From Escherichia phage Pu-Krd-SF1: a stretch of 64,000 bases of DNA. The DNA is taken from sequence record PQ249395. The stretch is one strand, 5' to 3'. Below the pieces are notes generated by a model. The model was not told where the DNA came from. It saw nothing but the letters and a program-made list of their open reading frames with translations, and made no database searches. This document shows positions 6,667-6,707 of this stretch, one piece after another; position 1 is the first letter of the stretch, and each line of letters begins with the position of its first letter. A program made the translations under genes and the position numbers.

Positions 6667-6707
6667 TGATAAGGGGCTTCGGCCCCTATTACTTGGAGTA
6701 AATAGGA

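Follow-up and report, generated by a model that had tools for sequence, protein, structure and literature searches.

Near-identical UUCG-loop hairpins at gene ends of a T4-like phage: probable RNA boundary elements made alike by convergence

Introduction

The sequence analysed here is a stretch of 64,000 nucleotides (nt) from Escherichia phage Pu-Krd-SF1 (record PQ249395), referred to throughout as the window. Every gene of the window lies on the + strand, and the rightward order is gene 1, tRNAs, e, nrdD, 55, a-gt, 47, 46, 45, 44, 62, regA, 43, 41, 61 and dda. At six gene ends a short G+C-rich hairpin capped by a UUCG loop lies at or close to the stop codon, and five of the six share one identical 12-nt core. 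These hairpins have counterparts at the same places in T4, where their class has long been known, and at several junctions they appear to be held in related phages by compensatory changes. Their uniformity within the genome is probably the outcome of convergence and not of copying from site to site.

Six UUCG-loop hairpins at gene ends

The exact 12-mer GGGCTTCGGCCC occurs five times, always on the + strand, at 6674, 34437, 37814, 43394 and 45341, as compared with a mean of 0.00 and a maximum of 0 in 100 dinucleotide-preserving shuffles. A search allowing two mismatches added the palindromic variant GAGCTTCGGCTC at 36543. All six sites carry C-TTCG-G on the + strand, which gives a UUCG loop with a C-G closing pair. 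The first-pass annotation of the window had described a hairpin family recurring at five sites plus a variant; this is true, and its coordinates were correct to 1-3 nt. With A-U and G.U extensions included, the stems comprise 6-9 pairs and the hairpins occupy the spans listed in Table 1. Nearest-neighbour energies range from -8.8 to -12.2 kcal/mol for the six hairpins, with cores at about -9 to -13 kcal/mol, and when each was folded within 72 nt of context five of the six were intact in the minimum-energy structure; the exception, at 55.3/55.2, pairs there in another way with sequence upstream of it.

By comparison with T4, the hairpins lie 3' of e.6, 55.3, a-gt.2, a-gt, gene 45 and regA. Each of them starts no more than 5 nt from the stop codon of a + strand gene, and at four of the six the stop codon directly adjoins the stem or forms part of its base. 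Among Tequatrovirus contigs from IMG/VR, the e.6/e.5 hairpin was kept in four, the 45/44 hairpin was present in six and the a-gt hairpin was kept in five of six, with a UUUG loop in one. The hairpin sites were occupied in all Tequatrovirus contigs examined, with no presence/absence polymorphism among them.

Table 1. Hairpins with UUCG loops in the window and the signals next to them.
Feature	Sequence	Position	Strand	Setting	Predicted energy (kcal/mol)
e.6/e.5 hairpin	AGGGGC-UUCG-GCCCCU	6672..6687	+	e.6/e.5 intergenic, 5 nt past e.6 stop	-11.2
Sequence 3' of the 6672 hairpin	UAUUACUU, then GGAG	6695-6698 (GGAG)	+		
55.3/55.2 hairpin	AAGGGC-UUCG-GCCCUU	34435..34450	+	after 55.3 homologue; stop TAA within stem	
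RegB-type cleavage motif	GGAUAAUAAAA	34453..34463	+	2 nt past 34435 hairpin, 4 nt past its G+C core	
Variant hairpin	AUAGGAGC-UUCG-GCUCCUAU	36539..36558	+	after a-gt.2 homologue; stop TAG within stem	-11.5
MotA-box-type middle-promoter motif	TGCTTTA-N12-TAAAAT	36561..36585	+	3 nt past variant hairpin, upstream of a-gt	
a-gt hairpin	UAAAGGGC-UUCG-GCCCUUUA	37810..37829	+	a-gt end; stop TAA is the first 3 stem nt	
MotA-box-like motif	AGCTTTA-N12-TATAAT	37829..37853	+	overlaps last base of 37810 hairpin; upstream of 47.1/47	
45/44 hairpin	AUAGAGGGC-UUCG-GCCCUUUAU	43389..43410	+	gene 45 (sliding clamp)/gene 44; abuts gene 45 stop	-12.2
regA/43 hairpin	AAGGGGC-UUCG-GCCCCUU	45338..45355	+	regA/gene 43, 2 nt past regA stop	-12.1
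Sequence 3' of the 45338 hairpin	UUAUUU, then GGAG, then TATAAT	45360-45363 (GGAG), 45364-45369 (TATAAT)	+		
Further hairpin	AGUCUCC-UUCG-GGAGACU	16271..16288	+	then U6 run, then GTTTAC-type early promoter at 16304	
Further hairpin	AGGGAGCC-UUCG-GGCUCCCU	19676..19695	+	nrdC.11/nrdC.10 junction; then U7 run; T4 counterpart at 55425	-15.7
Further hairpin	UCCCCCUC-UUCG-GAGGGGGA	52425..52444	+	inside coding sequence, uvsX/40 overlap; without U-run; conserved in T4 (22340)	-15.9

The same hairpins in T4

T4 has hairpins at the same six places, and four of them (e.6, a-gt.2, a-gt and regA) are base-for-base equal to those of the window; the first three lie at T4 coordinates 69300, 38726 and 36618, respectively. 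The 45/44 and 55.3/55.2 hairpins each differ from the T4 reference at one stem position. At 55.3/55.2 the T4 sequence has GCCU in place of GCCC, and the resulting G.U wobble still pairs.

At both places (31908 for 45/44 and 40832 for 55.3/55.2) the T4 record NC_000866 reads GGGCTTCGGCC(T), with one C fewer or a C-to-T change. This form is either a genuine G.U variant or an old sequencing compression artefact; the full GGGCTTCGGCCC stands at 45/44 in all six IMG/VR Tequatrovirus contigs checked.

Hairpins of this kind are routine landmarks of T4 gene organisation, and it was in them that the UUCG tetraloop was first noticed. Tuerk et al. in 1988 (PNAS 85:1364) are said to have described the T4 'CUUCGG hairpins' as exceptionally stable. 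The intergenic regions of T4 are rich in CUUCGG hairpins, which stop reverse transcriptase, according to the passage of PMC8948821 that cites Tuerk 1988, and an independent re-survey of T4 gives hairpin potential for the sense-strand CTTCGG only (PMC7165471). The hairpins of the window share with that class a C(UUCG)G on a short G+C stem, an intercistronic position on the sense strand and the phage group, and differ from it in nothing substantial: they have GCCC where T4 has GCCU or one C fewer, at 45/44 and 55.3/55.2. Because loop, closing pair, stem, sense strand, intercistronic position and phage group all match, the six can be assigned by sequence to the T4 CUUCGG class, known since 1988 and therefore not new. 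The observation is genuine and well located, and had rightly been seen as T4-like; it adds little that is new. No terminator annotations were found in the stretches examined of the T4 records AF158101 and NC_000866, and an Rfam scan of the whole window returned 8 tRNAs only, with no family covering the hairpins.

Strand polarity

Among the GC-rich UUCG hairpins of the window with stems of at least 5 bp, nine are on the sense strand and one is antisense, and the lone antisense example reads on the sense strand as a CGAA-loop terminator with a T-run. Across the whole T4 genome, a count of C(UUCG)G hairpins whose stems have 6 bp or more gave 20 sense and 0 antisense (two-sided binomial, 2e-6), and these 20 follow the local gene strand whether the region is early and leftward or late and rightward. 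Read in reverse complement, the 12-mer also forms a hairpin, but with a CGAA loop. A DNA palindrome would show no polarity, and the complete polarity of TTCG therefore argues for a role in RNA and not in DNA. Strand bias, cross-genus covariation and published T4 work all point the same way, and an RNA-level role is thus supported.

Conserved junctions and changing stems in related phages

The cluster 45-44-62-regA-43 was compared from eleven other genera or groups, together with further IMG/VR contigs. Other T4-like phages, among them those of Mosig-, Karam-, Gelderland-, Slopek-, Pseudoteven- and Lazarusvirus, keep a hairpin at three junctions: 45/44, regA/43 and the one upstream of gene 47. 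At these conserved junctions the stems differ through compensatory changes and the loops are UUCG, UCCG, UACG, UUUG, UUAG or GAAA. The regA/43 hairpin, which follows directly past the stop codon in the enterobacterial T-even clade, illustrates this when read side by side with that of the window: AUGGGAC-UUCG-GUCCCAU in Mosigvirus and Marfavirus, AAGGGAC-UUCG-GUCCCUU in Yersinia phage P8, AAAGGCC-UUCG-GGCCUUU in Klebsiella phage Roth68, AAAGGCC-UCCG-GGCCUUU in Gelderlandvirus, GAGGGCC-UUCG-GGCCCUU in Karamvirus and AGGGACC-UUCG-GGUCCUU in Morganella phage MP1. In an alignment of eight phages at this junction 100% of the cells were paired, a percentage inflated by the choice of the hairpin at each junction, and four of the seven pairs had changed on both sides; the covariation score was reached by 0 of 500 shuffles.

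The 45/44 stems are GGGC or GGGGC in five groups; Mosigvirus has GGAGGA-GAAA there, Karamvirus GGAUGGUC-UUCG and Lazarusvirus GGGCC-UUCG. In Mosigvirus-like contigs the hairpin upstream of gene 47 is AAAGGAGC-UUAG-GCUCCUUU, and a perfect MotA box comes after it. To judge from these alignments, position and fold are old and conserved and the sequence varies provided that pairing and a stable loop persist, which makes the hairpins a small clean example of an RNA structure held at fixed junctions by compensatory change together with swaps among stable tetraloops (UUCG, UCCG, UACG and GAAA). The regA/43 hairpin is not universal in T4-like phages and belongs largely to the enterobacterial clade and its near relatives: in a profile scan of IMG/VR with the RegA alignment, which returned mostly distant marine T4-like contigs, 60 of 80 had no stable hairpin within 100 nt past the regA stop.

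Two pairs of contigs differ in the loop on a common stem. At regA/43, L097 (Slopekvirus) and L010 (Pseudotevenvirus), in both cases at 3563-3632, share a 12-bp stem, AAAGCCCUUGCA...UGCAGGGGCUUU, which is capped by UUCG in Slopekvirus and by GAAA in Pseudotevenvirus, a natural tetraloop swap. The sister contigs L111 and L112 likewise have one stem, with a UUAC loop in one and GAAA in the other.

U-runs and neighbouring signals

The first-pass annotation had remarked that several of the hairpins lack a long U-run, and this is borne out: the six have 3-4 contiguous U followed by interruptions, which amounts to 4-5 U in the 8 nt past the G+C core, as against 6-7 contiguous U after the strong terminators of the window at 16271, 19676 and 58730. 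In T4, terminators are built from a GC-rich stem that carries a 4-nt loop and is followed by poly(U), and at mobE, where the poly(U) is weak, termination is about 30% (PMC2988022). The six hairpins resemble the intrinsic terminators of E. coli and T4 in their GC-rich stem, 4-nt loop, U-rich tail and position after the stop codon (PMC2988022), but their U-tracts are poor, strong termination is not expected of them and the genes downstream are co-expressed. Textbook intrinsic terminators do occur in the window, at 16271, 19676 (UUCG loop) and 58730 (CGAA loop), with U6-U7 runs.

Two of the six sites are followed directly by motifs of the MotA-type middle promoter (Table 1), of which the window contains 14, compared with 3.1 expected from shuffles. 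The motif beginning at 37829 encloses a GGAG at 37839-37842, about 10 nt past the 37810 hairpin. The order of hairpin, then TTTGCTTTA, then -10 element upstream of gene 47 is conserved in Mosigvirus-like contigs that have a different hairpin. The 45/44 hairpin sits between a weak TTAATA and TATAAT, 16 nt apart; a sigma-70 promoter scan of the window gave 90 matches against 84.7 in shuffles, which is no excess, and was not used as evidence. The usual spacing between a MotA box and the -10 element is 11-13 nt. The GCTTCG within the regA/43 and 45/44 hairpins was considered as a MotA box and rejected, the spacer to the -10 element being by hand count 15 nt in the T4-type regA/43 hairpin and 6 nt at 45/44.

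Candidate sites for the RegB endoribonuclease are also found next to the hairpins. In T4, RegB efficiently cuts the GGAU of the ORF 55.2 leader, with the consensus GGAGAAUAAAA, and moderately cuts the GGAG of ORF 47.1 (PMC1702504). The 55.2 leader holds two GGAU motifs, and the one that is cut is presumably the motif at 34453. The GGAGUAUAAUA that follows the regA/43 hairpin fits the RegB consensus and is a candidate site only.

Comparison with PeSL cassettes and mobile repeats

The promoter-early plus stem-loop (PeSL) elements of phages RB49 and phi1 are units of about 100 bp in which the stem-loop is joined by an early promoter of the sigma-70-like type (Arbiol et al. 2010, PMC2839356). They share with the six hairpins an intergenic position, a stem-loop of the GGGG...CCCC type after a stop codon and a proposed role as terminator or attenuator, and they have been proposed as drivers of recombination, the same idea as that put forward for the hairpins in the first-pass annotation. 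PeSL elements are, however, conserved over their full ~100 bp, whereas the six are alike in the hairpin alone. Early promoters of the form GTTTAC-N16-19-TAnn(A/G)T number 20 in the window and none adjoins any of the six, two of which have MotA-type middle promoters instead. The six hairpins are thus not PeSL cassettes. Nor are they mobile repeats resembling repetitive extragenic palindromic (REP) sequences or miniature inverted-repeat transposable elements, having one orientation only and no extended consensus.

Two intergenic cassettes elsewhere on the + strand, at 17095-17137 and 54161-54203, do look on their sequence like true PeSL-type units of early promoter plus stem-loop. They have a mean column identity of 81% over a 95-column alignment. 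In each, an inverted repeat of 15 bp with the loop GGTATA encloses a GTTTAC -35 element followed by TGGTATAGT, and a Shine-Dalgarno sequence comes directly after the repeat.

Possible function and origin of the hairpins

We regard the six as RNA-level boundary hairpins of the T4 C(UUCG)G type, most likely serving as leaky terminators that also block 3' exonucleases, and made uniform by convergence and not by copying, and we would give this reading a probability of about 0.78. The hairpins would be transcribed within rightward early and middle polycistronic mRNAs, each folding just 3' of a stop codon into a very stable structure with a stem of 4-5 G-C pairs and a UUCG cap. Each is most likely a leaky intrinsic terminator (attenuator), its leakiness being attributable to the short and interrupted U-tract behind it. 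Where the RNA ends at the hairpin, either through termination or through a cut a few nt downstream (by RegB at GGAG/GGAU, or by RNase E), the hairpin would block host 3'-to-5' exonucleases and spare the upstream cistron; after a downstream RegB cut the hairpin would form the 3' end of that cistron. Such a 3'-terminal hairpin is the classic barrier to PNPase, RNase II and RNase R, which are known to degrade mRNA during T4 infection (PMC3014915). At two sites a MotA-type middle promoter would restart transcription directly 3', and the hairpin would there separate expression modules.

Position, strand, predicted stability, conservation with compensatory changes and adjacent motifs are observed; the efficiency of termination and the blocking of exonucleases are what we infer. 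In being stable hairpins 3' of a cistron the six resemble the stem-loops that protect mRNA 3' ends, such as REP sequences and the terminators that block PNPase and RNase II, and at some of the six sites GGAG or GGAU occurs a few nt downstream, where RegB might cut. REP sequences differ in being longer, in occurring in both orientations and in having an extended consensus, and protection by the six is presumed. The suggestion made in the first-pass annotation, that these are T4-like UUCG structures serving as terminators, attenuators or stabilisers of 3' ends, is supported by the match to T4 junctions, the strand bias, the covariation and published T4 work. A literature search for mapping of T4 transcript 3' ends found none.

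Several points weigh against this interpretation. The terminator consensus scan, which required at least 5 T within 8 nt after the stem, was passed by two of the six hairpins only (36539 and 37810). RNA-seq treats T4 35,662-27,197 (45, 44/62, 43) as one MotA-dependent block (PMC6024815), and termination at 45/44 and regA/43 is therefore weak at best. How the roles of terminator and stabiliser are divided among the six sites is something we infer. To these may be added the selection of hairpins behind the pairing percentage given above, the slightly greater likeness of the downstream flanks than of controls (p about 0.015-0.03), and a set of 13 T4 deletions, half of which reportedly involved GGGC motifs (Mosig 1998, cited by PMC2839356), which may leave room for a side effect at the DNA level.

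The near-identity of the copies had been taken in the first-pass annotation as a sign of spread by recombination, and this is the part of it that did not hold, given unrelated flanks, site-specific orthologues and a GGGC stem that is common elsewhere and ties for the highest stability. A common origin, in which recombination or gene conversion either carried a single hairpin unit into further intergenic regions or made the existing sites uniform, does account for five copies of an identical 12-mer where none is expected by chance. T4 also has other duplicates, namely a nearly identical pair of 22 nt (GGACUCC-UUCG, each with a U-run; 15315 and 130351) and a pair with AAGGCC; its recombination needs short homology only, and PeSL cassettes recombine in RB49/phi1 (PMC2839356). 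When the flanks were aligned, the check proposed in the first-pass annotation, they showed essentially no similarity, with none above controls upstream and a marginal one downstream. Over the upstream 40 nt the copies resemble one another no more than control gene ends do, 0.90-0.98 of the control sets having scores as high or higher, and the likeness among copies ends at the 12-20 nt of the hairpin; the slight likeness downstream is what U-rich tails and promoter or Shine-Dalgarno sequences common to the sites would produce. Of the shared 12-mer, 6 of the 12 bases are the CUUCGG motif itself and only three base pairs lie beyond it. By nearest-neighbour energies no all-GC stem of 4 bp capped by C(UUCG)G is more stable than GGGC, which GGCC and GCCC equal. 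Each site is closer to its counterpart in other genera than to the other copies in its own genome: three phages have GGGAC as their regA/43 stem, others GGCC or GGGCC, and four have GGGGC at 45/44. Between the T4-type and the Mosigvirus regA/43 hairpins there are two compensatory pair changes in the stem, with the flanks conserved. Within each genome of another genus the hairpins differ among themselves, and there is therefore no sign of concerted evolution. In 529 kb of T4-like DNA from outside Tequatrovirus, GGGC is the commonest stem, found in 8 of 21 sense-strand C(UUCG)G hairpins, and at that frequency the probability of at least 5 GGGC stems among 9 hairpins is 0.23; these hairpins lie at unrelated sites, in environmental contigs as well, and GGGCTTCGGCCC recurs in distant T4-like contigs. 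A coincidence of the hairpins with breakpoints of recombination between the window and T4 was also considered and rejected as a general pattern: of the six sites only 36543 is near one, which is the insertion of the homing endonuclease gene mobB in T4. Copying is unlikely on this evidence, and the near-identity is best explained by each ancient, site-specific hairpin having settled on the same favoured solution. It would be rather more improbable that the GGGC-UUCG-GCCC subclass, which combines a short stem and a weak U-tract, lies in the replication/middle-gene region and is never joined to an early promoter, is a sequence-specific signal held uniform within Tequatrovirus genomes, whether through gene conversion over short patches or through recognition of GGGC/GCCC by a phage factor, at sites that would double as favoured points of module exchange; if true, this would revive the GGGC-deletion observation of Mosig 1998. 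Chance recurrence of a short G+C-rich palindrome, for which the length of 12 nt speaks and nothing else, has a practically negligible probability given five occurrences against none in 100 shuffles, all on a single strand, all at gene ends and conserved in relatives.

Two further alternatives concern the level at which the hairpins act. The inverted repeats GGGC...GCCC could work in DNA, as cruciform or protein-bound hotspots of recombination or as module junctions, as in the GGGC motifs of Mosig and the PeSL idea; a protein recognising GGGG...CCCC stems has been speculated on (PMC2839356), and the soc terminator at 58730 lies exactly at a boundary of similarity between the window and T4, with its loop inverted. 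This is very unlikely, since all 20 T4 cases have the TTCG on the transcribed strand and none has it on the opposite one, G.U wobble variants are tolerated, which fits pairing in RNA and not in DNA, and the loops change among tetraloops stable in RNA. Breakpoints between the window and T4 are moreover not enriched at the hairpins, and the lack of an adjoining early promoter, described above, sets them apart from PeSL cassettes. A role in translation, in which the hairpin blocks re-initiation or scanning of ribosomes into the next cistron or shapes the binding site of the RegA or gp43 repressor, would accord with the stop codon lying in or beside the stem at most sites, and with the translational repression of genes 44, 45 and 43, the gp43 operator hairpin being 23 nt 3' of the regA/43 hairpin (PMC3014915). 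We consider it highly improbable: the operator described for gp43 forms a hairpin of its own, whose loop includes UAAC (PMC3014915), hairpins of this type also follow genes without known translational control, including the late genes 23, 37 and hoc of T4, and the next start codon is 25-80 nt away with its own Shine-Dalgarno sequence. The favoured reading, of RNA boundary hairpins that converged, carries a negative lesson: identical short hairpins in a phage genome need not be a mobile or copied element.

Other hairpins of the window and phage identity

Three further UUCG hairpins with other stems lie on the + strand and had been missed by the first-pass annotation (Table 1, last three rows). 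That at 16271 is the strong-terminator form of the UUCG loop class.

The terminator after soc, at 58730-58751 on the + strand, reads AAGGACTCC-CGAA-GGAGTCCTT plus a T-run, and T4 (NC_000866, near 15315) has AAGGACTCC-TTCG-GGAGTCCTT, the same stem with the 4-nt loop inverted. Similarity between the window and T4 resumes at 58717, at this terminator, after a divergent stretch. In T4 a second, nearly identical copy of the 22-nt soc hairpin with a U-run is found at 130351, after gene 30.9. A strong terminator with a GAAA tetraloop, AGCCCCGACC-GAAA-GGUUGGGGCU followed by UUUU (4601-4624, + strand; -19.8 kcal/mol), closes the tRNA/small-RNA region.

The + strand hairpin at 45378-45395, AGCCU-AAUAACUC-GGGCU, lies 23 nt 3' of the regA/43 hairpin. 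We take it to be the gp43 translational operator, the original target of systematic evolution of ligands by exponential enrichment. Its loop is conserved across genera as AAUAACUC, CAAUAACUC or AAUCACUC. At 42011-42046 (+ strand) a 16-bp hairpin of -17.1 kcal/mol holds a MotA box and a -10 element in its arms (TGCTTTAATTTATTAGAGTATAAT), just 5' of the gene 45.2 Shine-Dalgarno sequence, so that the stem-loop, whether of RNA or of DNA, takes in a middle promoter.

In sequence comparison positions 34000-46000 have 100% identity to Escherichia phage Pu-Krd-SF6 and about 97% to T6. Near-identity to Pu-Krd-SF6, with 3 mismatches in the first 32 kb, holds to about 47170, inside gene 43; beyond this point the window diverges from Pu-Krd-SF6 and its nearest relatives are Pu-Krd-SF3 and SF4, at 99.1%. 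The position at about 47170 thus marks a recent mosaic junction within the DNA polymerase gene, and with this departure from Pu-Krd-SF6 the window is classed, by its sequence relationships, as a mosaic T4/T6-like Tequatrovirus.

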